Below are positions 3,310 to 19,488 of a stretch of 31,317 nt of DNA, piece after piece. The position numbers and the translations under genes were made by a program. The notes under the pieces were generated by a model. It was given only the letters and a program-made list of their open reading frames with translations, ran no database searches and had not been told where the DNA came from. Numbering within the stretch: position 1 is the first letter of the stretch; each line of letters opens with the position of its first letter. This DNA comes from a virus, in the IMG/VR virus record IMGVR_UViG_3300045988_067427, positions 1 to 31,317 of that record. The stretch is one strand, 5' to 3'.

Positions 3310-3323
3310 GGCTTCCGGGTCAA

Positions 3324-3590
3324 TCACCATAGTGCGTCTCCAATCGAGTCGATCTCGTCCATGAGGTTGTCTAGTTCACAGTAGTAGCAGTATGCGGCCA
3401 AGTAGTCAGGCAGGTCCACACCGTCCCAAGTTACCCTACCTTCAGCAGCGTGTTCAATGTCAATCTTGAGGTTGATGAGGATGCCCTCCTGTAGGTCCTC
3501 ACCGTACACGTTGAGCACGTGGTCGTGTAGCTCAGCAAGGTCAATACCGTTCTCGGCTACGTACTCGGGGTCTCGCTTGAATCCTAGCAT
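3324..3590 (-). CDS. 88-aa strongly acidic hypothetical protein
   Basis: Track ORF 3324..3752 trimmed to ATG 3590. GGAGGC lies 6 nt upstream, and the ATG overlaps the stop of the upstream gene (ATGCTAG). Very D/E-rich. Confidence 0.7.
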   Translation of the reverse strand: MLGFKRDPEYVAENGIDLAELHDHVLNVYGEDLQEGILINLKIDIEHAAEGRVTWDGVDLPDYLAAYCYYCELDNLMDEIDSIGDALW

Positions 3591-4039: not shown

Positions 4040-4042
4040 TGT

Positions 4043-4216
4043 TCACCGATCCACTACGAGGAAGGTCGCTTCGATTGGAGTGTGCTGGCTGGAGTCCCAG
4101 TAGATGTCTCCCAGCTCACTGGTGTAGAGGTAACCGCACTCGAGGAGTGCCTCGATGCTAGCCCCGTAGAAGTCTTCGACGGTTTCGACTCGGATTGTTC
4201 CCTGCGTTTCGATCAT
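4043..4216 (-). CDS. 57-aa acidic hypothetical protein, probably leaderless
   Basis: Not in the track. Product MIETQGTIRVETVEDFYGASIEALLECGYLYTSELGDIYWDSSQHTPIEATFLVVDR. The ATG lies exactly 6 nt downstream of a TGtTAAGAT extended -10 box. Fills the gap between two - strand genes. Confidence 0.55.
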   Translation of the reverse strand: MIETQGTIRVETVEDFYGASIEALLECGYLYTSELGDIYWDSSQHTPIEATFLVVDR

Positions 4217-4222
4217 GGATCT

Positions 4223-4252
4223 ATCTTAACACACTCTAGAGGGATTGCACAA
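4223..4252 (-). promoter_or_regulatory. Candidate extended -10 promoter (TTGTGC-N18-TGtTAAGAT) with leaderless geometry
   Basis: On the - strand the -10 TAAGAT is at 4228-4223, preceded by TGt. The -35-like TTGTGC is at 4252-4247. The spacer segment agagtgtgt resembles that of the promoter at 14381-14409. The ATG at 4216 follows after 6 nt. Confidence 0.45.
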
Positions 4253-5849: not shown

Positions 5850-6114
5850 CCCTAGCTATCTCTTCCTGGTAGGTATCTGGTGTGACACATGCCCAATACC
5901 CTCCGGCTGACATGATATCAGACCCAACCTTGATCTGCCACTGGCTCAAAGATGAGCCTGTTTTAAGCTCCAGACCTACGAACCTACCTCTGAAACAGGC
6001 TATGAGGTCTGGTATGCCTTTCTTAGTGTACTGGCTGGCGTGGTATTTGACAACCCACCAACCACGTGACTCTATATACTTCTGAACTTGTCTTGAGAAT
6101 GTGCTCTCTAGCAT
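5809..6114 (-). CDS. VRR-NUC domain nuclease
   Basis: Track ORF 5809..6255 trimmed to ATG 6114, because the upstream part overlaps the preceding gene. Carries the VRR-NUC signature GIPDLIACFRGRFVGLELKT. Confidence 0.75.
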   Translation of the reverse strand: MLESTFSRQVQKYIESRGWWVVKYHASQYTKKGIPDLIACFRGRFVGLELKTGSSLSQWQIKVGSDIMSAGGYWACVTPDTYQEEIARVEDEILRDSLEGL

Positions 6115-6151
6115 GCCCAGGGCAGGGCTCCTGTCCCTGCCCCAGACTATG

Positions 6152-6598
6152 TCAGAGAATGTCGTCGAACTCGCCGAATTCGTCATCAACAGGCTGCTGG
6201 TCATCGTCCTTGACCTTAAGGTCGACCTCAGAGAACTGGGCCACACGTGCCACACGTGACCTCAACTTGCCATAGAATGTATCATCCTCAAGCTCAACGT
6301 TGATCTTTTTACCAACGTACTTGTCAGGGTCAATCTGTACAACCTTGCTAGGAACCTTAGTACCAGCTGCCTCGATCAGCTCACGAAGTTTCCACAGCTG
6401 ATTAGGGACGATCTTGCAGTAGTAGGGGTAGCGTCCAGGGCCACATTCAATAGCAAAGACAAGCATGTCAGTGCCGTCTTTCTTAGCTTTGGCCAGCTCC
6501 ACACCGGCTATCTCAGCGTTGTACACGCCCGGCTCCTGATGAGCAGCGGTGTACGTGGGGGCCTTGACGTTACTGAAGTCGATCGAGAGTTTAGCCAT
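6152..6598 (-). CDS. DUF669-like / SSB-like protein with acidic C-terminal tail
   Basis: The pattern PGVYNAEIAGVELAKAKKDGTDMLVFAIE is typical of DUF669 proteins that accompany Sak4-like ATPases. The C-terminus DDEFGEFDDIL resembles SSB protein-interaction tails. Confidence 0.7.
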   Translation of the reverse strand: MAKLSIDFSNVKAPTYTAAHQEPGVYNAEIAGVELAKAKKDGTDMLVFAIECGPGRYPYYCKIVPNQLWKLRELIEAAGTKVPSKVVQIDPDKYVGKKINVELEDDTFYGKLRSRVARVAQFSEVDLKVKDDDQQPVDDEFGEFDDIL

Positions 6599-6866
6599 TG
6601 TTAGAGTTCCTTTCCTTAAGGACTGATCGGATGTAGTCGATTGTAGCGGATGTTGTGGTGAAGAAGCAAACCGTGATGGTGAACATATCGCGGTTCATGT
6701 GGTCGTTGTAGCGTACCTCATACTGGCCTACCTGATGAGCCACAGTGATGGGGTTGGGGATGTCGATCACTGCGAGATCCTTGTGCTCGAAGCGCCAGGG
6801 CAAGTCATCCATCTGGTCACACAACCTGACAAGAGCGTTACTACAGACCTTTGAAAAATCAATCAT
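6591..6866 (-). CDS. 91-aa hypothetical protein
   Basis: ORF with 8-nt overlaps to both neighbours in the replication operon. No recognisable motif. Confidence 0.7.
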   Translation of the reverse strand: MIDFSKVCSNALVRLCDQMDDLPWRFEHKDLAVIDIPNPITVAHQVGQYEVRYNDHMNRDMFTITVCFFTTTSATIDYIRSVLKERNSNNG

Positions 6867-7521
6867 GTGTGAGGTACCTTTCCAGTCGCTCCCAAGTGGG
6901 AGACCCCAGCCAGGGCTTTCGAGCTGCGATATCAGCCCTGCACCCTGCCACGATACCCTGTGTGGGCTTGAGCCACATACGGTACCCGGTGTTGGAGTCT
7001 CGCTTAACTGACTCTGTGTAGCCTATCACGTCCGCATACATTAGCGCAAACTGTCGAGCTTGACCGGGAAGGGCCAGCGTGACCTCCTTGGTCTGAGCCA
7101 CATCGGCATCTTCTGGGTCAGCCTCATCCACATAGGTGACTTTAGCCTGGCCCGTCAGGACCACAGGGGTATCAAGGCCCCGCAGAGTGAGGATCAGTGA
7201 CTTGATCAGTTCGTTGGCCTGGCCGTACTGGGGCAGGCTGACAGGCTTAGAGACCGTCAGGAGGTCCCCTCGCTTACGTCCCGATACGAAATTCAGTGCC
7301 AGCTCATGGGCCACAGTGATGCTGTCTATAGATACAGCCTGAGGAGGCTTAGCGACAATTGCCTGAACCTCTTTAGCCAGAGCTTCCCAAGTGTCTACCT
7401 GTGTGGTCTCGGCCTGTACTGCACGGGTGCCGCCTTCGAGGTCAATAATCTTAACCCCAGGCACCGTAGCTGCGAACGTCGTTTTCCCAGTCTTAGGCTG
7501 TCCGTATACTAGTGTGATCAT
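6859..7521 (-). CDS. AAA_24 / Sak4-like RecA-type recombination ATPase
   Basis: N-terminal P-loop MITLVYGQPKTGKTTFA followed by IIDLEGG. Size and neighbours (DUF669, PD-(D/E)XK nuclease) fit the family. Confidence 0.8.
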   Translation of the reverse strand: MITLVYGQPKTGKTTFAATVPGVKIIDLEGGTRAVQAETTQVDTWEALAKEVQAIVAKPPQAVSIDSITVAHELALNFVSGRKRGDLLTVSKPVSLPQYGQANELIKSLILTLRGLDTPVVLTGQAKVTYVDEADPEDADVAQTKEVTLALPGQARQFALMYADVIGYTESVKRDSNTGYRMWLKPTQGIVAGCRADIAARKPWLGSPTWERLERYLTHD

Positions 7522-8465
7522 TTGTACCTCTCCATAGGGTCTCTCTTGTCATAGAATTGAAGGAACTGCTCTTCTGTGCCGAACTCTACCCTAGCCGCTG
7601 CGAGCTTGCCCATACGGCATAGGTACGAATTACCACACACGTTAGGGTTACGGTCCTCTGGTGGCTGAGACCAGTCATACTCACCGACCTGCCTAGCCCA
7701 CCTTAGTATACTCTTTATCTGCCGAGCGTGTACCTGCTTATTGAAGGGCACCAGCAGCCTGGTGAAAGCTGGGCAATGTTGACGCTTCAACAACTCAGCC
7801 TCCTTGACCAGGATATCACAGTCGCTGCTGGAGATCCTCGTCTTGTTCTCATGCATCCAGTCTACCATAGATCGGTAACAAGTGCTACCTGAGCTGCCCT
7901 TGGTGAGCTTGAGCTTGCCCGTCTTGGTCAGCTGCGGCCACACGACTTTCTGTGGCTGGATGTAGTCCCAGATCATACCACCGAGTGGCAGGTCCCAACC
8001 AAGCCTATGCTTGTTGCCCTCAAGAAGCCACAGGTAGGCGTGTGACTGGATATCAAGCTGCCGGTACTCCGCGGTAGGCAGAGTCTGGTGTGTCTTGTGG
8101 TCTAGTACCCATAAGCGTCCACCGAGCTCCACTACCTTATCGATCTTACCCCTGTACTCGTGATTACACCCGGGGATGCCTCGTGACAGGTCCAGCTCGC
8201 ACGCCAGAACGTTGAGGGGCTCATCGCGGTACCTGTACTCATAGGCACGGTACACACGGTCGAGGTCATCGTAGATCTCATGCTCCTCCTCCATGAGGTC
8301 CTCTGGACGCTCTGGGGGAGTACCTGTCTCGAGCCATGAATGTAGGTAGGTACCTCTATCTAGGGCCGTACCTGGATGGGGCTTAGGTGTGATCCCCTGT
8401 AGGTCATAGTAAGCCTCCAGAGGGCAGTTCAGCCAGGACTTGATCAGGCTAGTTGTTATCTGCAT
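7518..8465 (-). CDS. PD-(D/E)XK (Cas4/RecB-like) exonuclease
   Basis: Core motifs GKID...LWVLDHKT and QSHAY (QxxxY). Has an N-terminal Cys (NCPLE) and a C-terminal Cys pair (VCGNSYLC). Confidence 0.75.
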   Translation of the reverse strand: MQITTSLIKSWLNCPLEAYYDLQGITPKPHPGTALDRGTYLHSWLETGTPPERPEDLMEEEHEIYDDLDRVYRAYEYRYRDEPLNVLACELDLSRGIPGCNHEYRGKIDKVVELGGRLWVLDHKTHQTLPTAEYRQLDIQSHAYLWLLEGNKHRLGWDLPLGGMIWDYIQPQKVVWPQLTKTGKLKLTKGSSGSTCYRSMVDWMHENKTRISSSDCDILVKEAELLKRQHCPAFTRLLVPFNKQVHARQIKSILRWARQVGEYDWSQPPEDRNPNVCGNSYLCRMGKLAAARVEFGTEEQFLQFYDKRDPMERYK

Positions 8466-8470
8466 GTCAG

Positions 8471-10195
8471 CTACCTTACATCAATCTCTGGTCCCCAGCA
8501 AGTGCCTACCTCAACATCAGCTACCAGAGGGCAGTCAAAGTGGGGCAGGGGCCCCTCCATGGTCTCCTTGATCATGCTTGCTGTGGTCTCGGCTAGGTCA
8601 TCAGGCACCAGCACGAGCACAGCGTCGTGGATCAGGCCCAGTATGTGGCTGTCACCCTCCAGGCTAGACCACACACGTGTGGCAGCTCTCAGCATGATGT
8701 CGCTACCTGTGCCCTGCACCTGACTATTGACAGCCTGGCGCTCAGCTGCCGCTACCTCGTATTCGTCATCGCTGTATAGTCCTGGCAGGTGTCGCCTACG
8801 GCCGAACATAGTCGACGAGTACCCCAGCTGATGAGCCTTAGCTTTGGCCCTAGCGTGCCATGGGCGTAGCCCTGACCAGTGCTGGAAGAAGGACTCCCTG
8901 AAGGACTCAGCCTCCTCGAGCGTGATGTCAGTACCGTAGCTAACCTTAGCGAACTGGACGAACGACTTAGCGCTCATGCCGTACAGGAATCCGAAGTTGA
9001 CGATCTTAGCTTTCCTACGGTCAAAGCTATTGTCCGGATCCAGCCCGATAGCACGTGTGGTCTGTGAGTGGATGTCCCCGCCCTGTCTGTACAGCTCGAG
9101 CATATTCTTGTCACGCGAGACCACAGCTGCAACGCGTAGCTCCAGCTGGCTGTAGTCAGCCTCAATGATCTTGTACCCGTCAGGGGCAGCTACCAGGCCC
9201 CTTATGAAGGGGTCCTTCGGAACTTGCTGTAGGTTCACGCCAACACCGTCACATACTTTGCTCGAGGATAGACGCCCAGTCACAGTACCGTGGAGCTTAA
9301 ATGACGTGTATAAACGTCCCCTTTCGTCTATTTGTTCTTTATATGGGGTAATAAACCCGTCTATGTTCTTCTTTAGTCGTGACCTTTCTAATAGTGTTTT
9401 AGCAATAGGGTGATCCATATAAGCAAGAGCCTTCTTGGAAAGGCTAGGAGCACCATTAGGGAATGCTTTAGTAGGCTTTCCTACCTCCTTTTTGGGGATT
9501 CCCAAATAGTCGTACAGGAACCACCGCTGAAAGTTAGTAGTCCCCCATTTAACCTGCATACCTTCGGGTATTTCTGAAGGTATTTCTGACTGTAATTTGG
9601 CGTCTATCTTAGCCAATTCAGAGGTGTATCTACGCTCGGCTATCTCGAGCTTACCCCGGCTAATCGGAATACCGTAGTCTTCGGACTCGGCTAGCATGTT
9701 GATAGCCGGGACCACAACCTTCTTGAGGAGTTTCTTCTGATTGAGGGTGAGTTTACCCCTGTTAATCCGGTATAGCTCACGTGTGGCCAGGAGGTCCTTT
9801 TTCAGATATGTGGCCATAGCTTCAGGATCAGAGTCATCCCACACACCGTCATAAGACCAGTCCCCGCCCATAAAGTCAGCCATGAGAGACTTAAGGCCTA
9901 GAGGTCGATTCTCGTCCACCATATGAGCACCCAGCATAGTGTCTCCAGCTGCCTCGATATCGGCACCGAACCGCTTAGCGTACACTATGTCGAATTTGAT
10001 GTTGTGGCCCATAACCGGAGGGAGTTTTCCACACAGCTTGACAAGCCTAGCACGCCATGTCTCAGGGTGCTTAGAGGCCATGTGGAAAACACGTGGCTCA
10101 TCTTCAGGCTTATCACCAAGGATGCCCACCATAAGCACGGCGGCATCCTTGGCGCGGGGATTAAGCCCTGTGGTCTCGATGTCTAGAAATAACAT
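8471..10195 (-). CDS. Family A DNA polymerase with 3'-5' exonuclease domain
   Basis: Exonuclease motifs FLDIETTGL, HNIKFD and YLKKD. Polymerase motif A DYSQLELRV, motif B RRKAKIVNFGFLYGMS, motif C LIHDAV. No 5'-3' exonuclease domain. Confidence 0.95.
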   Translation of the reverse strand: MLFLDIETTGLNPRAKDAAVLMVGILGDKPEDEPRVFHMASKHPETWRARLVKLCGKLPPVMGHNIKFDIVYAKRFGADIEAAGDTMLGAHMVDENRPLGLKSLMADFMGGDWSYDGVWDDSDPEAMATYLKKDLLATRELYRINRGKLTLNQKKLLKKVVVPAINMLAESEDYGIPISRGKLEIAERRYTSELAKIDAKLQSEIPSEIPEGMQVKWGTTNFQRWFLYDYLGIPKKEVGKPTKAFPNGAPSLSKKALAYMDHPIAKTLLERSRLKKNIDGFITPYKEQIDERGRLYTSFKLHGTVTGRLSSSKVCDGVGVNLQQVPKDPFIRGLVAAPDGYKIIEADYSQLELRVAAVVSRDKNMLELYRQGGDIHSQTTRAIGLDPDNSFDRRKAKIVNFGFLYGMSAKSFVQFAKVSYGTDITLEEAESFRESFFQHWSGLRPWHARAKAKAHQLGYSSTMFGRRRHLPGLYSDDEYEVAAAERQAVNSQVQGTGSDIMLRAATRVWSSLEGDSHILGLIHDAVLVLVPDDLAETTASMIKETMEGPLPHFDCPLVADVEVGTCWGPEIDVR

Positions 10196-10698
10196 TTTGT
10201 CAACTCTTTGGCAAGCTTGTGAGCGGTGCGCACATCTGTGGTTGATTTGTACTCAATTGATTCTTCACCAATAGTGAAAGTCGTAGCTGTGCGGAACTTG
10301 TTCAACTTCCAGCTGGCCGTCCGTGCACACTCAGTAACCCACGAGCGGTACCCAATGCTCAGAACCAGGAATTCAGCCCAAGAGTACCCAGTCTCGGCGC
10401 CTGCCCACAACTGCTTACCCCAGTCCGAGAACAAGTCATCTAAGTTGAATGCAATCACGGCCAAGTTGAACCCCTTAGCCCGTGGTACGTTAGGCTTAGC
10501 CCCTGCTCGGATTTCAGAATTGATACCCACGTAATCGTGGATATCCCCGTCAACCCACGAGCGGGTCATGACACCGTGTGAGTTCTGTGGGTCCACAACC
10601 AGCTCGCTGGGGGCGTACCCCAGCCCTCGGGCGAAGACTTCAGGGGTAACCCCTGGGGTGGCTGCAATGACAAGTCGGTCAGACGGATTCACTAACAT
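10183..10698 (-). CDS. 171-aa hypothetical protein
   Basis: Good RBS (AGGAGAG 4 nt before ATG 10698). Overlaps the helicase stop by 20 nt and the polymerase start by 13 nt. No motif recognised. Confidence 0.75.
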   Translation of the reverse strand: MLVNPSDRLVIAATPGVTPEVFARGLGYAPSELVVDPQNSHGVMTRSWVDGDIHDYVGINSEIRAGAKPNVPRAKGFNLAVIAFNLDDLFSDWGKQLWAGAETGYSWAEFLVLSIGYRSWVTECARTASWKLNKFRTATTFTIGEESIEYKSTTDVRTAHKLAKELTKCYF

Positions 10699-12043
10699 AG
10701 GTCTCTCCTAACAGGAAGTCTCTGGTATTCAGCATGATCTCTTTACGGAACTCTGTGGCCTCAGCCAGGCTAGACCACAGGGAGTCCTCCACAGTGTCCT
10801 GAGTCACCAGGACGATGACCTTCGGATCATCTGCTAGAGCTACTCTATCAGACATCTGGCGGTAGGTCAAAGCTGAGGTAGGCACCCCGTACCACACCAG
10901 CACTTCGGCCTCGCGCATATCCACAGCAGTGGCAGCGACTTGAGGATTTACCACCAGAGTGCCAGCCTCAGAGGCCTTCCAGGCGTCCAGCACGGCAGTC
11001 TTATCCTTTACCTTACCGTCCAGCCTATACGTGGGGTCTAAGTGACCCTCCAGCACTGTGAGGGAGTCAAGTAGCTCGCTAGCTACCACTATACGACCAC
11101 TGTAGCTGTCGCGTATGCGCAGCAGGGCCTCGAGCTTGTGGGTGCTGTGCATGAGCTTCCCCTCACCTGTGGATAGCCCCTCAGCTAGCCTGCGGCACTT
11201 GGCAAACAGGGCCAGCACCGAGTCAGCTCCAGTTTCGCCTTGAGCCTCGAGGACGTCGAGCTCATCCCGCACCATAGACTGGTAGGTAGCATGACGGGAC
11301 TCGACCATGTATACGGGCACAACCTCCTCCTGCACAGCCTTAGTGCCCAGAGCGTCCTCACGGCTAATACTTATGGAGTGCGCCTTAATAAGTGCCTGGT
11401 ATTCCTCAGTATTCCTTGGACCTATATAGCGGGGGAATCCCCCGAAATTAGACCATTCACCGAAATACTCCCGGAATGACTTAGCTGAGGGGAAATCAGC
11501 TCGAATAGAGGGGTCAGAGAATACCAACTGTGGGTAAATCTCACCCACCATATTACGCTTACCCACAGGGGTGGCTGTCAAGCATACCCTGTATCTAGCA
11601 GATTTAGCCATACCCACAATACGCCTAGACCTCTTGCTGGCGGGCGTCTTGATTAGGTGAGATTCGTCCAGGACAATAGCTGATGCGTGGTATTCAGCCC
11701 CTTTGAAAAGTCCCTTAGGGTACCCTCGGGAGAATTTGTCATAGTTGATGAGCACTATCTTAGGCAGTGCGGAGGCCTCATATGCCCCATCGTAGACAAT
11801 GTCCGCCTCAGGACCCCAGTAATGCTGCTGGAGTTCCCTGACCCACACGTCAATAGCGATCTTAGGGCAGACCACAACGATGTACCTAACATCACGGTTG
11901 TGCATCAGCCACGACAACCAGTCGATGGTTGTCTTAGTCTTACCCGTACGTGTGTCCATAAGGAGCATACCGTGCTCTTTTTTAGCCAGCCACTTAACCG
12001 CGGCCAGCTGATAGTCTCGAGGTTTAGTGACTGGCTCAAACAT
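10679..12043 (-). CDS. SNF2/DExH-family helicase
   Basis: Motif I MDTRTGKTKT, motif II VLDESHLIK, motif III LTATP and a C-terminal helicase lobe with QMSDRV. Confidence 0.9.
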   Translation of the reverse strand: MFEPVTKPRDYQLAAVKWLAKKEHGMLLMDTRTGKTKTTIDWLSWLMHNRDVRYIVVVCPKIAIDVWVRELQQHYWGPEADIVYDGAYEASALPKIVLINYDKFSRGYPKGLFKGAEYHASAIVLDESHLIKTPASKRSRRIVGMAKSARYRVCLTATPVGKRNMVGEIYPQLVFSDPSIRADFPSAKSFREYFGEWSNFGGFPRYIGPRNTEEYQALIKAHSISISREDALGTKAVQEEVVPVYMVESRHATYQSMVRDELDVLEAQGETGADSVLALFAKCRRLAEGLSTGEGKLMHSTHKLEALLRIRDSYSGRIVVASELLDSLTVLEGHLDPTYRLDGKVKDKTAVLDAWKASEAGTLVVNPQVAATAVDMREAEVLVWYGVPTSALTYRQMSDRVALADDPKVIVLVTQDTVEDSLWSSLAEATEFRKEIMLNTRDFLLGETYVSESV

Positions 12044-12303
12044 TAGTTAATTGCTCCTTCAATCATCTTCTTGTACTGGAGTGTGGTCCCAGTACCCATC
12101 CTAGCAACCTCCACACCCTCGCGCAAGGCGATAACTGTAGGCACGGACATGATGTCAAATTTACGCCCTAGGTCAGGGTTGACCTCAACATCAACGTAAT
12201 CCCAACCAAGGTAAGGGAACTTTTGCATAGCCCTTTCAAAATTAGCCTTGGCTTGCGGGCACTGTGCACACCATGGGGCTCCAACAAAGAACAACTTCAA
12301 CAT
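12043..12303 (-). CDS. Thioredoxin-fold redox protein
   Basis: 86 aa with a WCAQCP CxxC motif and the SVPT cis-Pro element. Its ATG overlaps the stop of the upstream gene (TAATG), and its own stop overlaps the ATG of the downstream helicase gene. Confidence 0.8.
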   Translation of the reverse strand: MLKLFFVGAPWCAQCPQAKANFERAMQKFPYLGWDYVDVEVNPDLGRKFDIMSVPTVIALREGVEVARMGTGTTLQYKKMIEGAIN

Positions 12304-13130
12304 TAAACTACCACCACTTTCGCTGAGTAGATAGGCGCCTTATAGTCGACCGCCTTGAACCCTTTACCTTTAAATTCTAGCACACCTTGTTTAGCCGGTA
12401 TGAACTCAATCTCCTTCTCTACCCTAGCGGGCATCAGCATCCTATGCCAAACATCGAGATTCTGGCAATACACATGTGCATTAGCAGTAGTGAACCTCAG
12501 CTGACCCGGCACGACCTCATGCCCGTGATAATTCAGGGTATTAGTCATCAGGTGGATAAGCATCCATCCCTCAAGCGTGTCGTAAGGTAGACCGCACACT
12601 ACATCAGTAGACCGGGCGAATATGTCGAGGTTGACCCTGCCCCCTACCACATTGAACACCCACACCACCGGGCAAGGTGGAATACGCATAGACCCTACCT
12701 CATACCCCTGCCAGGCAGTCCACACAGCGCGTTTGGTTGTGGGGTTGGCTACAAGCCTGTCCACAACGTCCTGTACAGCGTCATATAGCCCACCAGGGCC
12801 CCCGTAGCGCCACTGGACTCCATACATAGGCCCCAGCGTGTCTGTGGCCCACGGGGACCACATGCGCTCCACATCTGGGGTGATTCTAGCACACCTGTCC
12901 TGCTGTGTGGCCCCTGACCCGCTCAGCATCCAGTGCAGCTCACGCTGAGCCATGTCCACAGACACTCTACGAGTCTGGGATAGGGGTGCATGGGTGTAGA
13001 CCACACTCCATGACCCGTAGCACCAGTAGGGGTGCTCCTGCCCTTTTGTTACTAGCTCAGCAACCTGTCTAGACAGGTTGTATACGTTATGATCATACTC
13101 ACACAGCACGTCGGTAAGCCTCCGATACAC
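12303..13130 (-). CDS. Thymidylate-synthase-family enzyme with dCMP-type active site (candidate dCMP methylase/hydroxymethylase)
   Basis: ThyA motifs ELHWMLSG, GPMYGVQWR, PPCP (catalytic Cys), ARSTDVVCGLPYD and ANAHVY. The spacing is identical to E. coli QRSCDVFLGLPFN, which puts Asp where ThyA has Asn177. Confidence 0.85.
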   Translation of the reverse strand: MYRRLTDVLCEYDHNVYNLSRQVAELVTKGQEHPYWCYGSWSVVYTHAPLSQTRRVSVDMAQRELHWMLSGSGATQQDRCARITPDVERMWSPWATDTLGPMYGVQWRYGGPGGLYDAVQDVVDRLVANPTTKRAVWTAWQGYEVGSMRIPPCPVVWVFNVVGGRVNLDIFARSTDVVCGLPYDTLEGWMLIHLMTNTLNYHGHEVVPGQLRFTTANAHVYCQNLDVWHRMLMPARVEKEIEFIPAKQGVLEFKGKGFKAVDYKAPIYSAKVVVV

Positions 13131-13857
13131 ACTTGACGATTATGTAACCCGGTTCCTTAACCCATGAGCTACCGTAATTAGCCCAGTGCGTAAAGTCTTT
13201 AACTGCCTTATTGAAATTCTTAGCTAGAGTGTAATTAGTCACCCCATAAGATACATCTGGGCTTACATTATAGCCCATATTAAGGTACTTATGAAAGGCC
13301 TCAAGAATAAACATACAGGCCTTTTTAGTAAGGTCCCTAAACCTTATATCACCCCAGTTAAGGGTCTCCATGCATTGGGGATACCAGTCACCGAAATTGA
13401 GGTCATTAGACCACCGAGCGCCGTCATCTTTTAGAGACCTAGTTACGACCACACCTGCATTCTTCAGCACGGTTATACCCTGTTTGTGGTCTCGCCAATT
13501 AGGCTTTTTCAAGGCTGGGTCAAGCCACGGCCTGTCGTATTCCAGGTACCCTCTAAACCATGACAGCAACAGTGCCCTAGCACAGTTCGCACACGGCTCA
13601 TATGTCATGGCTATGTGGCCCTCACGCAGCTCGTAAGGAAGCCTCATAAGCTCTAGTGAGGCCCACACCTCCGCATGAATGTACTCAAGACACTGGCCAT
13701 TAGGTGCGATATCGTGCAGTTTAGGGCCGAGCTCCACGTTATGAGTGGCTATGGCTCTCCCTGTACGTGTGTTTTCGAAATAACACCCAACCTTGACATC
13801 CGGGTGGGACGACTGACTGGCTACCTCGTATGCTTTTTCAATGTTACTCAGTATCAT
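13099..13857 (-). CDS. dCMP/cytidine deaminase-family zinc enzyme with ~110-aa C-terminal extension
   Basis: Motifs VKVGCYF...YIHAEVWA...YEPCANCARALL (H-A-E and P-C-x-x-C). Residues ~140-252 have no recognisable motif. Confidence 0.85.
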   Translation of the reverse strand: MILSNIEKAYEVASQSSHPDVKVGCYFENTRTGRAIATHNVELGPKLHDIAPNGQCLEYIHAEVWASLELMRLPYELREGHIAMTYEPCANCARALLLSWFRGYLEYDRPWLDPALKKPNWRDHKQGITVLKNAGVVVTRSLKDDGARWSNDLNFGDWYPQCMETLNWGDIRFRDLTKKACMFILEAFHKYLNMGYNVSPDVSYGVTNYTLAKNFNKAVKDFTHWANYGSSWVKEPGYIIVKCVSEAYRRAV

Positions 13858-14137
13858 AGGTCCTCACAATAACACGATCGAACTGTGGAAAAGTCTTCAG
13901 AATAGCTTCACAAGTGATGCAAACGTGGTTAATTATGTACGCAATGCCCGGGCGTGACCCCCCAACCTCATTTAGCAGCCTCATTACTGGGTGGATGTAG
14001 GCCCCTCCGGGCTTAGGGTAATACTTACCCGGCACCCACCAGATACCGTCTGGGCTTGAGAAAACCACAGATGACATACATCCTCGCTCGGGCTTGATGC
14101 TCTGAACCATGCGGGGAATATCCCCGAATTCATACAT
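13844..14137 (-). CDS. 97-aa deaminase-fold-like protein lacking the catalytic Glu (HPV ... CITC)
   Basis: The sequence SSVVFSSPDGIWWVPG...AYIHPVMRLL...IAYIINHVCITCEAILKT...RVIV follows the order of the CDA-fold beta-alpha elements. His and Cys-x-x-Cys are retained, but Val sits where the proton-shuttle Glu should be. Overlaps the start of the catalytic deaminase gene by 14 nt. Confidence 0.5.
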   Translation of the reverse strand: MYEFGDIPRMVQSIKPERGCMSSVVFSSPDGIWWVPGKYYPKPGGAYIHPVMRLLNEVGGSRPGIAYIINHVCITCEAILKTFPQFDRVIVRTYDTE

Positions 14138-14343
14138 CAGAATTCACTCCAATCACCGAACTCGTCCTTGTGGCCGTACTTAGCCTCGTACTTGAACCCG
14201 AGCCACACACCAGCAATAGCCATCAGGATGAGGGCCACATACCACAGACCGTAGAAGATCATCCAGGTGATCAGCACCCCAAGCCCGAGAGCAGCAGCGA
14301 CAGCAGCAATAATACCGGCCATGTAGGCGACGAACTTAAGCAT
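14137..14343 (-). CDS. 68-aa two-helix membrane protein
   Basis: Track ORF 14137..14409 trimmed to ATG 14343 (GAAAGG RBS). The longer version would run through the promoter boxes. Product MLKFVAYMAGIIAAVAAALGLGVLITWMIFYGLWYVALILMAIAGVWLGF... Confidence 0.7.
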   Translation of the reverse strand: MLKFVAYMAGIIAAVAAALGLGVLITWMIFYGLWYVALILMAIAGVWLGFKYEAKYGHKDEFGDWSEF

Positions 14344-14380
14344 TGTTTGGAACCTTTCTTGATGTTTTCTTGATGTCTTT

Positions 14381-14409
14381 AGCTTAGCACACTCTGGGGA
14401 GCTATGCAA
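14381..14409 (-). promoter_or_regulatory. Extended -10 promoter TTGCAT-N17-TGcTAAGCT
   Basis: On the - strand the -35 TTGCAT is at 14409-14404 and the -10 TAAGCT at 14386-14381, preceded by TGc. The hexamers are identical to those of the promoter at 14859-14887. It is followed by acatcaag repeats and a GAAAGG RBS. Confidence 0.6.
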
Positions 14410-14426
14410 CCCCTCAGGGAAGAATT

Positions 14427-14825
14427 TTATTTGTTTTCAGCGAGCCACTCAGATCCGATCTCAACCAGCTGGCCGTAGGTTAGAGTGTAGTCCTCCTCGA
14501 CGCGGTCGATCAGGTAGCTGATCAGGGTCCACACAGGGCTGTCCTCGATGACCTCAGCGGTCTCAGGCAGGACCAGGACCTCACCGAACTCCTCGTCGAG
14601 GGGGGTGTCATCCGACTGGGGCCCCTCCACACGCACCAGCACGGGGTCAGTAGCCTCGACTGAGTGTGTGGCCCAGTATGCAGCCAGCTCCGCGATGGTC
14701 TCGCAGCCACTAATGCCACGCCTGACCTTCGACTCGTCGTAATCCATGGGCCAGCTGTACTGGGTCTCAGGGTCGAGCAGGTACTCAGTACCGCGGCGCT
14801 TGTCCTGGATCCTGTACGCGATCAT
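14427..14825 (-). CDS. 132-aa highly acidic early protein (hypothetical)
   Basis: First ORF downstream of the promoter at 14859-14887, with a GAAAGGA RBS. Very D/E-rich (DDTPLDEEFGEVLVLPETAEVIED). Confidence 0.8.
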   Translation of the reverse strand: MIAYRIQDKRRGTEYLLDPETQYSWPMDYDESKVRRGISGCETIAELAAYWATHSVEATDPVLVRVEGPQSDDTPLDEEFGEVLVLPETAEVIEDSPVWTLISYLIDRVEEDYTLTYGQLVEIGSEWLAENK

Positions 14826-14858
14826 CTGTGTAGTCCTTTCATGTGGCTTGATGTATCA

Positions 14859-14887
14859 AGCTTACCAACTCTGCCAGGTCTATGCAA
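14859..14887 (-). promoter_or_regulatory. Extended -10 promoter TTGCAT-N17-TGgTAAGCT
   Basis: On the - strand the -35 TTGCAT is at 14887-14882 and the -10 TAAGCT at 14864-14859, preceded by TGg. Lies in an intergenic region directly after a stem-loop. Confidence 0.6.
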
Positions 14888-14940
14888 CTCGGATCAGGGG
14901 TTGTTATCAAGTTGTTACTTTGCATTAGTTGAGATTCTAG

Positions 14941-14992
14941 GGCCTAGCAGCACCCCGGGGGTACAAGAGTACCGGGCAGGGGCTGCTAGGCC
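14941..14992 (-). terminator. Stem-loop after the zinc-protein gene (possible I-shaped terminator)
   Basis: 11-bp stem ggcctagcagc / gctgctaggcc enclosing a 30-nt loop that contains ccccgggggtac. No U-tract. Confidence 0.4.
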
Positions 14993-14997
14993 GTAAA

Positions 14998-15261
14998 TCA
15001 GCGTTGCCTGAAGCTCTCAGTGGTATCGTAGCCTGTCCCCCGTATGCCAGCTCTGGCCTGAGTCATGCCCTTAGCCTCCATCTCAGTTGGGGTGAGGCAC
15101 CTACGGCGATCAGGGCCCTCAGTCACCCCGTGGCGGCCTACGCGGTGCATGTCACCCGCCCTGGTACCCCCGAAAGTCTCATGGCACACGGGGCAGTGCT
15201 CGTAGCTGCGTTTGGTGATGTTCTTCTTGCAAGTTCTGCATGCCCAAGTCATGGCACCCAC
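14998..15261 (-). CDS. FDxHR-type putative zinc-binding protein
   Basis: The pattern CRTC...HCPVCHETF...GDMHR...RRC matches the CxxC/HCxxCH/(F)DxHR layout of a family common in actinobacterial phages. The track start is GTG 15261; ATG 15252 (MTWACRTC) is an alternative. Confidence 0.75.
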   Translation of the reverse strand: MGAMTWACRTCKKNITKRSYEHCPVCHETFGGTRAGDMHRVGRHGVTEGPDRRRCLTPTEMEAKGMTQARAGIRGTGYDTTESFRQR

Positions 15262-15313
15262 CCTAGTACAGGCTAGAGACCCTGTAAAACGTGCAGGCTA
15301 TCGCGTTTTAGCC

Positions 15314-15368
15314 CCTAACAGGCCCTGACCCTACCTAGGATACCCCCTGGCCCTTTTGAGGCCGTCTA
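15314..15368. repeat. Copy A of a ~55-nt composite direct repeat (cctaacagg-N18-taccccc-N7-tttgaggccgtcta)
   Basis: Shares three blocks with 16343-16396 at the same spacing (offsets 0, 27 and 40-41 nt). The segment between blocks 1 and 2 contains ccctgaccc here and its reverse complement gggtcaggg in copy B. Confidence 0.7.
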
Positions 15369-15402
15369 GGGGCACTCCCAGCAAGGTCAGGATCAATCTA
15401 GG

Positions 15403-15783
15403 TCAGGACCACCAACCAGAGCGCGTCAGCAGGTCCTCCACCCCCTCGCGATCGAACCTGCCCTCACGCACCAGGTAGCACGCGCGGGCTAGTGCGGCCA
15501 GCGGGTGGGACTTGTGGCTGTAGGCCCACCTCGGGACGCGGGACCAGGCTGCCTTGGCCCCTACGGTGTGGCGCTTGATCATCGTGCCGCAGATGGCGTG
15601 GACAGCTAGCGTGAATGTCCAGGAGGTCAGGGCCACACGTGCCAGGGCGCGCAGGGCAGCCTCGAGTGCAGCGATGTCGTCTGTCTGGATGGCGGACAGG
15701 AGGTCGCCGGCCAGGACACGCTCGTAGCCGGTCTCCCTCGTGGTCGCGTTGATGGTTGCAAGGATCTCTCGTCTCTTGAGCAT
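15403..15783 (-). CDS. 126-aa hypothetical protein encoded by a GC-rich, high-GC3 gene (compositional outlier)
   Basis: This frame has the strong third-position G/C bias. The overlapping frames give Arg/Pro/Gly-rich nonsense. The ATG lies 6 nt after a TGcTAGGAT box. Six consecutive 60-nt lines counted by hand give 58-75% G+C. Confidence 0.7.
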   Translation of the reverse strand: MLKRREILATINATTRETGYERVLAGDLLSAIQTDDIAALEAALRALARVALTSWTFTLAVHAICGTMIKRHTVGAKAAWSRVPRWAYSHKSHPLAALARACYLVREGRFDREGVEDLLTRSGWWS

Positions 15784-15789
15784 GGGCCC

Positions 15790-15819
15790 ATCCTAGCACG
15801 GGACCACACACCAACGCAA
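15790..15819 (-). promoter_or_regulatory. Extended -10 promoter TTGCGT-N18-TGcTAGGAT, leaderless geometry
   Basis: On the - strand the -35 is at 15819-15814 and the -10 at 15795-15790. ATG 15783 starts 6 nt after the -10. The spacer contains one GACCACAC octamer (15802-15809). Confidence 0.55.
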
Positions 15820-15863
15820 CCACGTTAGCCGAAGTTAACCTACCCCCCTCTTGTGGTTCCCTC

Positions 15864-15880
15864 TCCCCCCAAACCCCCCT
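15864..15880. repeat. 17-nt C-rich direct repeat tccccccaaacccccct, copy 1
   Basis: Exact second copy at 15968-15984. Surrounded by further C3-C6 tracts. Confidence 0.85.
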
Positions 15881-15886
15881 CACCTT

Positions 15887-15921
15887 CCCGCGTGCGCGTA
15901 ACACGCGGGCGTAGCGCTACG
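15887..15921. repeat. GC hairpin (cccgcgtg/cacgcggg) followed by 12-nt palindrome cgtagcgctacg
   Basis: 8-bp stem at 15887-15894 / 15902-15909 with a 7-nt loop, then a perfect palindrome at 15910-15921. Confidence 0.7.
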
Positions 15922-15967
15922 CGCACATGACGCGCGCGCGTACGAGGCCGGGGCCCCTTCCCCGCCT

Positions 15968-15984
15968 TCCCCCCAAACCCCCCT
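15968..15984. repeat. 17-nt C-rich direct repeat, copy 2
   Basis: Identical to 15864-15880. Confidence 0.85.
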
Positions 15985-15995
15985 ATCCACCCTAA

Positions 15996-16045
15996 CCCCT
16001 GAGAGTCTCTCTCTGGCGTTTACGCCTGAGAGAGAGACTCTCAGG
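15996..16045. repeat. Hairpin H1: 23-bp stem (one T:T mismatch), loop ttta, apex ggcg-ttta-cgcc
   Basis: cccctgagagtctctctctggcg (15996-16018) pairs with cgcctgagagagagactctcagggg (16023-16045). Confidence 0.85.
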
Positions 16046-16107
16046 GGGAGTTAGTTATTATATATTTCTCTCTTTAGAGGGGGTATGGGGGAGACCTTTC
16101 TCTCTTT
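16046..16107. repeat. AT-rich block with two copies of tttctctcttt
   Basis: gagttagttattatatatttctctcttt, with 11-nt direct repeats at 16065-16075 and 16097-16107. Lies between hairpins H1 and H2. Confidence 0.7.
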
Positions 16108-16130
16108 GCTGGCTCCCTGACCCATCAGCA

Positions 16131-16220
16131 CCCGCCGTGTGAGCCCTCGGTCCAGGGGGCTACCGGGGCCCCCAGGCGTAAACGCCGGGGCCCCGGCCCT
16201 GGACCGAGGGACACGGCGGG
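16131..16220. repeat. Hairpin H2: ~38 bp in four helices, loop taaa, apex ggcg-taaa-cgcc
   Basis: Pairings are 16131-16140/16211-16220, 16144-16157/16197-16210, 16163-16172/16187-16196 and 16175-16178/16183-16186. The apical 14-mer caggcgtaaacgcc is the reverse complement of ggcgtttacgcctg in H1. Confidence 0.85.
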
Positions 16221-16342
16221 CTGGCACACACCGGATGACTGGACTTCAACGTGTCTGGCCGAACTGAGGCGGTGTGTGGTCTATCACTTGGGGCAGTAGA
16301 AGCCAGGATGCCTCTGAGAAGCCGTAGGATGGATTCTGAGGG

Positions 16343-16396
16343 CCTAACAGGGTCAGGGTGGCACTGAGGTACCCCCAGACGATTTGAGGCCGTCTA
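16343..16396. repeat. Copy B of the ~55-nt composite direct repeat
   Basis: cctaacagg (16343-16351), taccccc (16370-16376) and tttgaggccgtcta (16383-16396). Lies 1029 nt from copy A and ~30 nt upstream of the + strand promoter. Confidence 0.7.
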
Positions 16397-16425
16397 AGGC
16401 CGATACGTGCAGCTCTCAGGGGGCG

Positions 16426-16454
16426 TTGCGAGGTGGCAGGGAGTGTGCTAGGTT
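16426..16454 (+). promoter_or_regulatory. Extended -10 promoter TTGCGA-N17-TGcTAGGTT, leaderless geometry
   Basis: -35 at 16426-16431 and -10 at 16449-16454, preceded by TGc. ATG 16461 starts 6 nt after the -10. Confidence 0.55.
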
Positions 16455-16460
16455 GGGGGC

Positions 16461-16748
16461 ATGGAGTTTCCGCGAGAGGTTGTTAAGCGAGTCGTCGAGA
16501 TACCCGGAGGAGGTGAGGCACCTGCGCTGCCCGTCGGGTACAGGCTGGGCAGTGGCGGGATGAACCACGATGAACAAAACAAGACCACACTCCTGAGGTT
16601 TGTGGCTGAAGTGGATGGCTACCCGGTGGAGTCGTATGAGGCTAGGGCAGCCTGGCAGGCCCTTGTGGTGTACGGCTCCCGTGTGGTTCAGCTAAGGTCA
16701 GAGCTAGACCACACACAGCTGGAGGTGTATGTGACAGTGGCATGGTGA
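16461..16748 (+). CDS. 95-aa hypothetical protein, first gene of the + arm
   Basis: ORF that starts at the leaderless position of the promoter above. No motif recognised. Confidence 0.6.
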   Translation: MEFPREVVKRVVEIPGGGEAPALPVGYRLGSGGMNHDEQNKTTLLRFVAEVDGYPVESYEARAAWQALVVYGSRVVQLRSELDHTQLEVYVTVAW

Positions 16749-16877
16749 CACGCCGGGTGACTAGGTGATTTGACACGATAGGGGGGTACCCGCTAAGGTG
16801 TATACCAGGGTAGAAGATATACCCTGGGTACTGGTTTGGAGTACCCCCTGGATTGGAACCCCGGGGGTACTAATTTT

Positions 16878-16919
16878 GAGATACCCTAGGGGGTGCAGGA
16901 ATAGCCCCTAGGGTATCTC
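16878..16919. repeat. 15-bp inverted repeat gagataccctagggg / cccctagggtatctc (12-nt loop)
   Basis: Perfect arms at 16878-16892 and 16905-16919, in the non-coding stretch upstream of the HNH gene. Confidence 0.8.
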
Positions 16920-16923
16920 GCAT

Positions 16924-16970
16924 AGGTACCCCCCTAAGGTACCCCGTAAGGTACCCCCTGGTATACCCCG
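16924..16970. repeat. Tandem 12-13-nt AGGTACCCC(N) units (3 good + 1 degenerate)
   Basis: aggtaccccccta / aggtaccccgta / aggtaccccctg / gtataccccg. The array ends 15 nt before the HNH start codon. Confidence 0.8.
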
Positions 16971-16984
16971 ATAGGACTTATCCC

Positions 16985-17368
16985 ATGCCGTATTCAGCCC
17001 CCGAGCGATGCTGGTGTGGAGAGCTAGGTTTGCCAGGCACAGCGTCGTGCCTGGCCCACACACCGACAAAGTCTGGTTGGGAACTTCGGCCAACTGCTTG
17101 GAAGAATGTTGACGGAAAGACTTATCGTAAATGGAAGAAACTTCGGAACAGATTCATTAAAGAGAATCCTTTCTGTAATTTGTGCGGAATGATTGCAACA
17201 GAAGTTGATCATATTGATGGAATTAAAGCAATTGACAATGAATTAACAATTCTAGACGAAAATCGATTGCAATCATTATGTCATGAATGTCACGCAGCTA
17301 AAACAAGGGAAGCGTCAAGAAAATCACGAAATTCAATTAAAAAGCTGCGCCGGGGTAACTCTCCGTGA
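16985..17368 (+). CDS. HNH endonuclease (packaging-associated type)
   Basis: Motifs CNLCGMIATEVDHIDG...LQSLCHECHAAKT. Located directly upstream of the terminase genes. Confidence 0.9.
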   Translation: MPYSAPERCWCGELGLPGTASCLAHTPTKSGWELRPTAWKNVDGKTYRKWKKLRNRFIKENPFCNLCGMIATEVDHIDGIKAIDNELTILDENRLQSLCHECHAAKTREASRKSRNSIKKLRRGNSP

Positions 17369-17804: not shown

Positions 17805-17814
17805 ATAGAATACG

Positions 17815-19488
17815 ATGAATAATGTAATCCCTAATGAGATTAAAGAGTATTTAATCAGTAGGAAGCTGGACATACCTGAAAGAGGACCACACCTAAAATG
17901 CCCTGATCCTGGAGGTGTGGTCCACGGTATGCAAGTACGATTTAACCCGAAGAGCGTAGATCATGCTCTTCGGGTTATTTCTGCATTAAGGCACACTAAG
18001 GGTCGCTGGGCAGGTAAACCTCTTAAGCTAACTAATGTGCAGATAGCCTACATTGTGGCCCCACTGTTTGGCTGGCAAGTCTATGACGATTCTTTAGGGC
18101 GTTGGCTGAGGTTGTATAGGGACGCCTATGTTGAGATGCCCCGTAAAGGAGCTAAGTCAACGCTGGCATCAGCACTAGCTATGGTCCTTGCTTTTGGTGA
18201 TCATGAAGGCGGTGCTGAGGTTATTATCGGTGCGGCGTCTAGAGACCAGGCCGGAGCATGCTTCACACCGCTAAAGCAACTTGTCGACAACTCTCCTCTA
18301 CTTAAGCAAGCTGGCATCAGATCACTGCATAACTCGATCAAGCAGGACAGGACAAGCTCTGTAATCAAGGTCGTGTCTTCTAAAGGTGACCTAGCCCATG
18401 GTGCTAACCTGCACGGAGCTATCTGTGATGAGCTGCACGTGCATAAGTCTCTGTCCCTGCTAGAGGCTATGGAGACGGGTACCGGCGCTCGTGAGCAGCC
18501 TCTGACGATGGTAATCACCACAGCTGATGACGGCAGTGTGGGCACGCCTTATGACCAGCGTAGAGAGCTGGTTGACAACATATGTAAGGGGGTTGTAGAA
18601 GCCCCTAGGTCGTTCTGTGTGGTGTGGTCTGCTTCGCCTGAGGATGACCCCTGGTTAGAAGAGACGTGGGCTAAGGCTAACCCGCTGTACCCCGTAACTC
18701 CGTCACGAGCATTCATGCAGTCTGCTGCTGATAAGGCTAAGACTGACCCTGTGGCTAAGGCCAGCTTCCTGAGACTGCATCTAGGTATCAGGGGCAGGCT
18801 GGATGAGTCGTGGATCAGCAGGGCTGACTGGATGAAGGGGGCTGTGGACAAGCTGGATATCGAGGGCAGACAGTGCTATGGCGGGCTTGACCTTGCAGCT
18901 GTGTCTGATCTCACGGCGCTGGTGTGGTTGTTCCCTGCCGAGGACGGTACATACCAGATTCTCCCACGCTTCTTCTTGCCTGAGGCTGCGCTGCCTGAGC
19001 TTGACAGGGCCACATACCGTAATGCGACGGTGTGGGCTAGCCGAGGACTAATTAAGCTGACTCCGGGTAACGTCACCGATTATGACTTTGTTAAAGCTCA
19101 GATTGATGAGGACGCTAAGCATTACGATATTCAATGCATAGGGTTCGACCCGTGGAATGCCACGCAGGTATCGAATGACCTTCAGGCTGATGGGTATAGG
19201 CTAGAGAAAGTCCGTCAAGGTTTTGTGTCTATGTCTGGGCCTATGAAAGAGATTCAGAGGCTGGTTATGCAGGGGGGTGCTATTAAACATGACGGTAATC
19301 CCCTTATGGTGTGGCAGATAGATAATATTCGCCCTGCTATGGACCCTGCGGGTAATATTAAACCTGCTAAGCAAAAGAAGCGGGATAAAATCGATGGTGT
19401 TGCTGCGCTGGTAACGGCAATGAATGTGTGGCAATTCCACAAAACAAAAGTCTCGGCTTACGGCGTGTCGGGGCTAGAATCTATTTGA
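17815..19488 (+). CDS. Terminase large subunit
   Basis: 557 aa. Walker A-like EMPRKGAKST, a Walker B region (AICDELH) and a C-terminal nuclease-type region. Canonical position. Confidence 0.95.
   Translation: MNNVIPNEIKEYLISRKLDIPERGPHLKCPDPGGVVHGMQVRFNPKSVDHALRVISALRHTKGRWAGKPLKLTNVQIAYIVAPLFGWQVYDDSLGRWLRLYRDAYVEMPRKGAKSTLASALAMVLAFGDHEGGAEVIIGAASRDQAGACFTPLKQLVDNSPLLKQAGIRSLHNSIKQDRTSSVIKVVSSKGDLAHGANLHGAICDELHVHKSLSLLEAMETGTGAREQPLTMVITTADDGSVGTPYDQRRELVDNICKGVVEAPRSFCVVWSASPEDDPWLEETWAKANPLYPVTPSRAFMQSAADKAKTDPVAKASFLRLHLGIRGRLDESWISRADWMKGAVDKLDIEGRQCYGGLDLAAVSDLTALVWLFPAEDGTYQILPRFFLPEAALPELDRATYRNATVWASRGLIKLTPGNVTDYDFVKAQIDEDAKHYDIQCIGFDPWNATQVSNDLQADGYRLEKVRQGFVSMSGPMKEIQRLVMQGGAIKHDGNPLMVWQIDNIRPAMDPAGNIKPAKQKKRDKIDGVAALVTAMNVWQFHKTKVSAYGVSGLESI
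17884..17923. repeat. Convergent pair of the over-represented octamer (GGACCACAC-N22-GTGTGGTCC)
   Basis: 9-bp perfect inverted repeat inside the large terminase gene. Analogous pairs are at 24075-24123 (10-bp arms, N29) and 13447-13491 (7-bp arms, N30). Confidence 0.8.

Follow-up and report, generated by a model that had tools for sequence, protein, structure and literature searches.

Mirrored hairpins with a transposon-type tip in the divergent spacer of an uncultured tailed phage: a candidate replication-initiation region

The divergent spacer and its elements

The window, that is the whole stretch of 31,317 bases that was analysed, is the complete or near-complete genome of an uncultured tailed phage. 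Its genes form two divergent modules, one on the minus strand for replication and nucleotide metabolism and one on the plus strand with the terminase and virion genes; no tRNAs were found. The large terminase is 47% identical to its counterparts in Arthrobacter and Gordonia phages. A 677-bp spacer (15784-16460) separates the two modules and contains two long hairpins, H1 and H2, together with several further elements (the conservation values are column conservation across eight full spacers of related phages):

About 3160-15783, minus strand: replication and nucleotide metabolism module, with primase-helicase, Hjc-like resolvase, AAA_24 ATPase, PD-(D/E)XK nuclease, family A DNA polymerase, SNF2 helicase, thymidylate-synthase homologue and deaminase
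4236-5849, minus strand: primase-helicase, a RepB'-like AEP primase (catalytic and helix-bundle domains) fused to an RSF1010 RepA-like helicase
15790-15819, minus strand: promoter PL (pattern scan), TTGCGT, 18-nt spacer, TGCTAGGAT; ATG at 15783-15781, 6 nt past the -10 box
15862-15880, plus strand: C-tract element, TCTCCCCCCAAACCCCCCT; second copy at 15966-15984, inverted copy at 16076-16094
15889-15945: alternating CG/CA (purine-pyrimidine) block with GCGTA/TACGC repeats
15996-16047, plus strand: hairpin H1, 5'-stem-GGCG-TTTA-CGCC-TG-stem-3'
16015-16028, plus strand: tip and bulge of H1, GGCGTTTACGCC followed by TG
16048-16107: AT-rich stretch and conserved core, TTTCTCTCTTT - AGAGGGGGTATGGGGGAGA - CC - TTTCTCTCTTT; conservation 0.87
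16131-16220, minus strand: hairpin H2, with the tip module of H1 on the opposite strand and four helices
16170-16191, minus strand: 22 nt within H2, GCCCC-GGCG-TTTA-CGCC-TG-GGGG, identical to the right-end hairpin of IS200/IS605 TnpB elements (blastn)
16330-16400: nearly invariant 71-bp block with one GGTACCCCC word and the palindrome GGCCGTCTAAGGCC; conservation 0.96
16426-16454, plus strand: promoter PR (pattern scan), TTGCGA, 17-nt spacer, TGCTAGGTT; ATG at 16461
From 16461, plus strand: small ORF, HNH endonuclease (16985-17368), small and large terminase subunits, portal and the remaining virion genes

PL and PR are the only TGnTAnnnT promoters within 15700-16560, and each fires outward with the ATG 6 nt after the -10 box, so that the pattern scan confirmed the divergent promoters which the first-pass annotation had placed at the spacer ends. 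The exact 10-mer GTGCTAGGAT is found at PL, which is conserved in related phages and drives the replication module. Since the sole promoters of this type point outward from the spacer ends, the hairpins lie outside the flanking transcripts and are not terminators of the flanking genes, as had also been proposed. Cumulative GC skew reaches its lowest value at the spacer, a position that is confounded with the switch in gene orientation at the same point. A comparison of the spacer DNA with 50,697 phage records gave no match.

H1 consists of a 19-bp perfect stem, a 2-nt TG bulge, a 4-bp GGCG/CGCC apical stem and a TTTA loop, and is the longest perfect close-range inverted repeat of the whole window. 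The total of 23 bp agrees with the first-pass annotation, but the end that it gave (16045) had to be corrected to 16047. As DNA, H1 folds with -26.7 kcal/mol compared to -9.0 +/- 2.2 kcal/mol for dinucleotide shuffles (z -8.2), and 0 of 200 shuffles equal it. Folding likewise bore out H2 at 16131-16220 with 38 bp in four helices (10+14+10+4); its energy is -51.1 kcal/mol, compared to -26.8 +/- 2.7 kcal/mol for the shuffles (z -9.0). The window (31.3 kb) has exactly two copies of the 12-mer GGCGTTTACGCC, one on each strand, where about 0.05 occurrences are expected at up to one mismatch. Further details of the annotation also held: the 14-mer at 16015-16028 is the exact reverse complement of 16173-16186, the midpoint of the two tips, put near 16101, lies at about 16100.5, and the two tttctctcttt copies are located at 16065-16075 and 16097-16107. 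A copy of the tip with one mismatch at 1918-1929 was rejected as related; it is a 4-bp palindrome in a coding region without an extended stem.

The AT-rich stretch between the hairpins (16048-16107) is a candidate unwinding element, and in every relative 53-57 nt separate the H1 tip from the core word TCTCTTTAGAGGGGG (window 16067-16081) that follows it. C-tract copies 1 and 3 were also found in all relatives, and the C-tract copies are candidate protein-binding repeats. In the CG/CA block, which is prone to adopt left-handed DNA, the composition is kept among relatives while the sequence varies. Within the otherwise variable spacer, the block at 16330-16400 matches the hairpin tips in conservation and contains GAGGTACCCCCAG; no ORF, promoter or Rfam match was found that would explain it. 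The word GGTGTGTGGTC is present at 15802-15812 and 16271-16281 as an exact inverted pair around the spacer interior and belongs to the GTGTGGTC word, which is over-represented genome-wide. Where relatives carry a second H2, direct copies of the GGTGTGTGGTC word flank the additional segment (about 2000-2150 in contig L008). Upstream of the HNH gene (16769-16975 in the window) lies a dense field of GGTACCCC-type words, and miniature IS605-derived elements of a Chloroflexia genome that have the same hairpin tip also carry GGGGTACCCCATGGGGTACC (L380, L382 and other loci). The occurrence of these words in both the phage and Chloroflexia may be a coincidence or a hint about the host.

Conservation of the hairpins and their match to transposon ends

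Scans of IMG/VR and metagenomes yielded about 25 relatives from the same phage family, with 88-90% nucleotide identity and mostly about 31 kb in length. Across the eight full spacers, the H2 tip reaches a column conservation of 1.00 and the H1 tip with its bulge 0.95, compared to 0.76-0.87 for the stems and 0.61-0.79 for the linkers. The 12-nt tip is invariant in the approximately 25 relatives, and in the tip plus bulge of H1 only the first bulge base varies. Three kinds of change are seen in the stems, namely paired substitutions (GAGAG/CTCTC to GAGGG/CCCTC, CCCTCGG/CCGAGGG to CCACCGG/CCGGTGG), paired insertions and the exchange of entire stems, with at least four H2 stem types. All 25 distinct hairpin variants nevertheless fold into the same architecture. 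When arms were swapped between variants, the folding energy dropped from -28.0 (cognate) to -22.2 kcal/mol (swapped) for H1 and from -46.1 to -39.3 kcal/mol for H2, an average cost of about 6-7 kcal/mol that rises to 17 kcal/mol between types. Compensatory change, which had been named as a check on the hairpins, is thus seen both in the folds of the individual variants and in the arm swaps. The case for selection on pairing is good but not overwhelming, because the lineages are few and related.

The exact tip is confined to this spacer within 958 kb of family DNA. In every relative H1 is on the plus strand and each H2 copy on the minus strand, including the second copies present in some genomes. 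H1 shows no presence/absence polymorphism in the phage family and its distance to the core is fixed within 4 nt; H2 is present in one or two copies, its stem type is variable among near-identical phages and its distance to the core varies by 35 nt. A strand orientation that is fixed and flips across the AT-rich core argues that the hairpins are used strand-specifically and as single strands, and it points to a process with two opposite directions, leading away from the core or toward it.

More distant phages were inspected for the same arrangement. The cultured Microbacterium phage Tenda (about 30% primase identity) has an AT-rich divergent spacer with a CG block at the syntenic place, but without mirrored long hairpins, and such a hairpin pair is also absent from L213 (46% primase identity) and L205. 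In a group with 52-53% identity in the large terminase, positions 1-240 of contig L030 contain a CG block, an AT-rich stretch, a plus strand hairpin CATGTAACATCCCCC-TAAA-GGGGGATGTTTACATG and a second GC hairpin; this contig begins inside the spacer, so that its left half is not covered. Four other contigs of this group begin within 20 nt of the second GC hairpin.

The tip module is also found outside this phage family. In a blastn comparison all 22 nt of the H2 module are identical to the transposon hairpin, H1 matches in the 12-nt tip and the bulge, and no homology was found past these 22 nt (word size 9). At least 119 metagenome contigs contain the 18-mer around the H2 tip, which also lies at 113 places in genomes of bacteria from many phyla, and at least 90 of 234 occurrences are located in the context ...GAAGCC-CCGGCGTTTACGCCTGGG-GAGnnGTCA(C/A). 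In those contexts an ORF of 380-430 amino acids stops 6 nt upstream of the hairpin or overlaps it by 24 nt (counted from the start of the 18-nt search word), and all six upstream ORFs that were tested contain TnpB domains. The element ends 11-13 nt past the hairpin; among the more than 13 copies in a Chloroflexia genome, similarity is lost directly after GTCAA. A Chloroflexia genome is rich in miniature copies that lack a transposase. At their left ends the same elements carry hairpins of matching build (C4, 4 bp, 4-nt loop, 3' bulge, G4) with a different tip. The TnpB-adjacent context therefore identifies the module as the right-end subterminal hairpin of IS200/IS605 elements.

Such a right-end hairpin normally serves single-strand transposition and RNA-guided homing. 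In the guide RNA of TnpB, which covers the tnpB 3' end together with the element's right end (PMC8612924), the module forms the final stem-loop; the scaffolds upstream of it are too diverse for a covariance model. In IS608, an extrahelical base in the hairpin confers strand specificity on TnpA (PMC5027513). Like the ISDra2-like right-end hairpin, the phage hairpins have the 22-nt module with its 4-nt loop and 2-nt bulge on the 3' side, and strand-specific use is a further likeness. However, the phage differs from IS200/IS605 elements in several respects. It has neither transposase nor TnpB (no Y1_Tnp or OrfB_IS605 match in 30 phage ORFs) and lacks a left-end partner on the same strand: H1 and H2 occupy opposite strands and thus do not form a left-end/right-end pair. 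The tail GAGnnGTCA(C/A) is absent after H2, and after H1 the sequence GGGG-GAGTTAGTTAT only resembles GGGG-AGTTGTCAC and differs in relatives. The scaffold of the right-end (omega) RNA, about 100-130 nt upstream of the terminal hairpin and followed by the guide, was not found at H1 or H2. Finally, the phage stems are 23-38 bp long and the two copies are arranged as mirror images at a fixed locus.

The search also led to other settings of the tip. Two Blastocatellia genomes (L385, L421) carry tandem units of about 51 nt, each with a perfect CCC(A/C)GGCGTT(T/C)ACGCCTGGG hairpin, an array that is REP-like and built on nearly the same tip. In seven loci of Bacillota, Sulfobacillus and Thermogemmatispora (L374, L376, L395, L396, L399, L403, L425), the same 22-nt hairpin lies inside a second helix, GGCGCC-GGAAG...AGGA-GGCGCC or GGGC-GTAAAG...ATATAA-GCCC, preceded by ACCAAAT. 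These nested loci gave no Rfam match and are a different class of element.

Genome ends

The first-pass annotation had also offered a packaging or cos region as a reading of the spacer. The ends of the relatives' contigs refute this, since they are found at 17345-17366 and not at 15996-16220. Seven contig starts from three metagenomes fall into 17357-17366: five at 17357/17358 and the other two at 17365/17366. In three full-length contigs the sequence begins at 17358 and continues around the genome to 17345, 17347 or 17356; their ends do not overlap, and a gap of at most ten bases, CGCCGGGGTA (17348-17357), is skipped. Judged by these starts and ends, 17348-17357 is likely a cohesive-end site with a short overhang; it falls at the 3' end of the HNH gene and immediately precedes the gene for the small terminase subunit. 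The site lies 1.1-1.3 kb to the right of the hairpins, at the HNH/TerS junction, which is the cos position of HK97-type phages that pair an HNH protein with the terminase. In the syntenic phage Tenda the physical ends are located at the equivalent place, after the rightward gene beyond its divergent spacer.

Several contigs of relatives do break in or beside H1, H2 or the CG block, and the four contigs of the more distant group begin at a spacer hairpin, as would be the case if the hairpins marked the genome ends. The breaks in the relatives' spacers are however scattered over 15723-16243, which is expected because palindromes and hypervariable sequence cause trouble in assembly, whereas the seven starts at 17357-17366 are clustered, the full-length contigs close there with a 10-nt gap and Tenda ends at the same relative place. 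We therefore regard a packaging site (cos or pac) in the spacer as extremely improbable. One contig (L001, positions 1-108) opens with an inverted copy of 17806-17912 of the window joined to 17427, which probably arose as a fold-back artefact of assembly close to the genome end.

A possible replication origin and its alternatives

The replication module encodes an enzyme that is of interest for the function of the spacer. A profile of the 537-aa primase-helicase with 45 homologues was compared with the PDB and matched RSF1010 RepA best (1g8y, E 3.6e-16); RSF1010 RepB' was the only primase match (3h20, E 2.7e-4). An alignment-based AF2 model of the protein has a pLDDT of 88, and in Foldseek it matched RepB' (3h20, E 1.4e-8) over both the catalytic and the helix-bundle part, with RepA reaching the highest target TM-score (about 0.72). 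The catalytic AEP motifs DxD, SxGH and D are invariant. The fusion protein is a candidate for the reader of the hairpins. No RepC-like initiator was identified among the phage ORFs, and searches of Pfam, PHROGs, NCBIfam and the PDB revealed no hidden HUH or Y1 enzyme in the small ORFs beside the spacer.

In plasmid RSF1010, unwinding by RepA exposes two hairpin signals on complementary strands at which RepB' primes, and replication proceeds in leading-strand mode only (PMC8567376). For comparison we recovered the ssiA 40-mer at 100% in 149 IncQ-type plasmids and read the IncQ origin in one of the loci (L485): its order is iterons, GC-rich stretch, AT-rich stretch, ssiB (minus strand) and ssiA (plus strand), with the signals facing each other. 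In both the phage and RSF1010, an AT-rich stretch is accompanied by two hairpin signals, one on each of the complementary strands, and the enzymes are a RepB'-type AEP primase that includes a helix-bundle domain and a helicase of the RepA type. In sequence, however, H1 and H2 are unrelated to the ssi signals and thus lie outside this family. ssiA has a 9-bp stem, a GAA loop and no bulge, and the ssi signature (5' CCTTTC, hairpin at nt 7-27, 3' GTG start triplet) is lacking from H1 and H2; a CCTTCCCCCC word is located 20 nt upstream of H1 and does not adjoin the stem. In addition, both RSF1010 signals lie on one side of the AT-rich stretch whereas the phage hairpins flank it, and unlike in RSF1010, primase and helicase are one polypeptide in the phage and neither RepC nor a set of iterons was identified.

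A second point of comparison is the AEP primase-helicase of pRN1, which for replication needs a 100-nt stem-loop whose structure and not sequence is conserved; similar stem-loops have been noted in phages (PMC4234260). In the pRN1 type (ORF904) and in phages such as BIP-1, an AEP primase-helicase is likewise combined with a long stem-loop in which pairing is conserved over sequence. pRN1 however has a single stem-loop, located directly after its replication gene, and its helicase is of the SF3 type, whereas in the phage the two hairpins with their invariant tip are 10 kb away from the gene and the helicase is a RecA-fold one of the RepA type. The hairpins also recall single-strand origins.

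Those of rolling-circle plasmids are read by the host RNA polymerase on the displaced strand, and the ssoA type is a long imperfect hairpin with a short conserved loop motif that is read on one strand only, when single-stranded. The phage differs in that no Rep nickase was found and that its hairpins form a mirror pair.

A replication origin was among the functions first suggested for the hairpins, and it is the one that we favour, with a probability that we place somewhat below even: 15784-16460 would be a replication-initiation region, in which strand-specific single-strand hairpins with a transposon-type module flank the unwinding core of a bidirectional origin. The conserved AT-rich core, the skew minimum, the syntenic position in cultured relatives and the RepB'/RepA-type enzyme, together with the stability of the mirrored hairpins, their invariant tips, compensated stems and fixed strand layout, and the RSF1010 and pRN1 precedents, favour this reading and do not amount to proof. 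We infer a start of replication at the spacer, the protein that reads the tips and the template strand. The AT-rich core would unwind, possibly helped by negative supercoiling behind the two outward-firing promoters. Once single-stranded, H1 and H2 could fold on opposite strands, each presenting the same module, in which a TTTA loop caps a 4-bp GGCG/CGCC stem and 2 nt bulge out on the 3' side. Read strand-specifically, the module could act as a loading or priming signal, one for each direction of replication. The likely reader would be the phage's RepB'-type primase fused to the RepA-type helicase, by analogy with ssiA/ssiB of RSF1010 and with the long stem-loop origin of pRN1-type primase-helicases. 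If the strands with TTTA are the template, synthesis would run outward; if it is the strands with TAAA, synthesis would run inward as in RSF1010.

Several observations count against an origin. H1 and H2 have no sequence likeness to ssiA and ssiB and a different layout, a primase-helicase fusion need not require special priming signals, no RepC-like initiator was identified, Tenda and L213 are without the hairpin pair, and H2 varies in position and copy number. In addition, since the tip is identical to a transposon hairpin, its natural reader could be a Y1 transposase or TnpB and not a primase.

This identity is also the basis of the most serious competitor, which we consider unlikely but well worth keeping in mind: H1 and H2 might descend from IS200/IS605-type right-end hairpins, as non-autonomous palindromes or REP-like sequences that settled in the one large non-coding spacer without any role in initiation, and they might be kept or tolerated through the biology of a host Y1 transposase or TnpB or as topological elements. 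Such a descent would account for the 22 identical nucleotides of H2 and for their frequent place at the tnpB stop, and it is consistent with the shared build of the left-end hairpins, the strand specificity that an extrahelical base gives to TnpA, the abundance of miniature copies without a transposase in Chloroflexia and the variable copy number and stem type of H2 among near-identical phages. A decaying relic would drift, however, whereas the tip is under strong purifying selection in the phage family. The invariance of the tip, its restriction to a single locus, the constant presence of H1, the fixed mirror layout and the lengthened, co-varying stems argue against relics that decay or hop. 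The opposite strands, the lack of TnpA and TnpB genes, the tail that is missing after H2, the end of homology at 22 nt and stems of 23-38 bp compared to 8 bp in the transposon hairpin likewise count against this reading.

Two further explanations would place the function of the hairpins elsewhere. The tips are near-palindromic and lie between divergent promoters, and the spacer contains further symmetric elements (GTTAGCCGAAGTTAAC, the GGTGTGTGGTC inverted pair, the C-tract repeats); cruciforms or GGCG-N4-CGCC sites could therefore act in duplex DNA and bind a phage regulator of the divergent promoters in an early/late switch. A symmetric site would need no fixed orientation, yet H1 is always on the plus and H2 always on the minus strand, a 12-bp operator has no need of long co-varying stems, and the tips are 200-250 bp away from either promoter, so that a duplex role appears quite improbable to us. 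We give still less credit to a role as RNA, in which short transcripts would display the terminal stem-loop of the TnpB guide RNA, for instance as decoys for a host TnpB or as structured small RNAs. Although the tip is this last stem-loop (PMC8612924) and the whole spacer folds strongly as RNA (z -9.4), no promoter of the phage or sigma-70 type is directed into the spacer, Rfam returned only sub-threshold microRNA-like matches as it does by chance for any long hairpin, and the remaining guide RNA scaffold is absent, as is the tail after H2. The divergently transcribed structured RNAs of the first-pass annotation thus find no support, since the only two promoters face away from the spacer.

Returning to the origin, the identity of the module with a transposon right-end hairpin implies that it was either borrowed from such an element or shaped by a similar recognition of single-stranded hairpins. 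It might be possible, though we hold it to be rather doubtful, that a lytic phage took over and lengthened the right-end hairpin of an IS200/IS605-TnpB element and that the mirrored copies became the strand-specific start signals of a bidirectional origin, read by the RepB'-type primase-helicase. If this is true, recognition of transposon ends would be linked to the priming of replication. The match across phyla raises the question of whether one kind of protein reads the hairpin in both settings or whether the hairpin was transferred from a transposon to a phage origin.

The actinophage-like siphoviruses with RepB'/RepA-type primase-helicases include hundreds of cultured Microbacterium, Gordonia and Mycobacterium phages, and to our knowledge their origins are essentially unmapped. 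The spacer offers a compact candidate for such an origin, with the 12-nt tip, the bulge and the stem pairing as targets for mutation. If priming at the hairpins is confirmed, hairpin-directed leading-strand priming, so far a feature of IncQ plasmids, would extend to phages.
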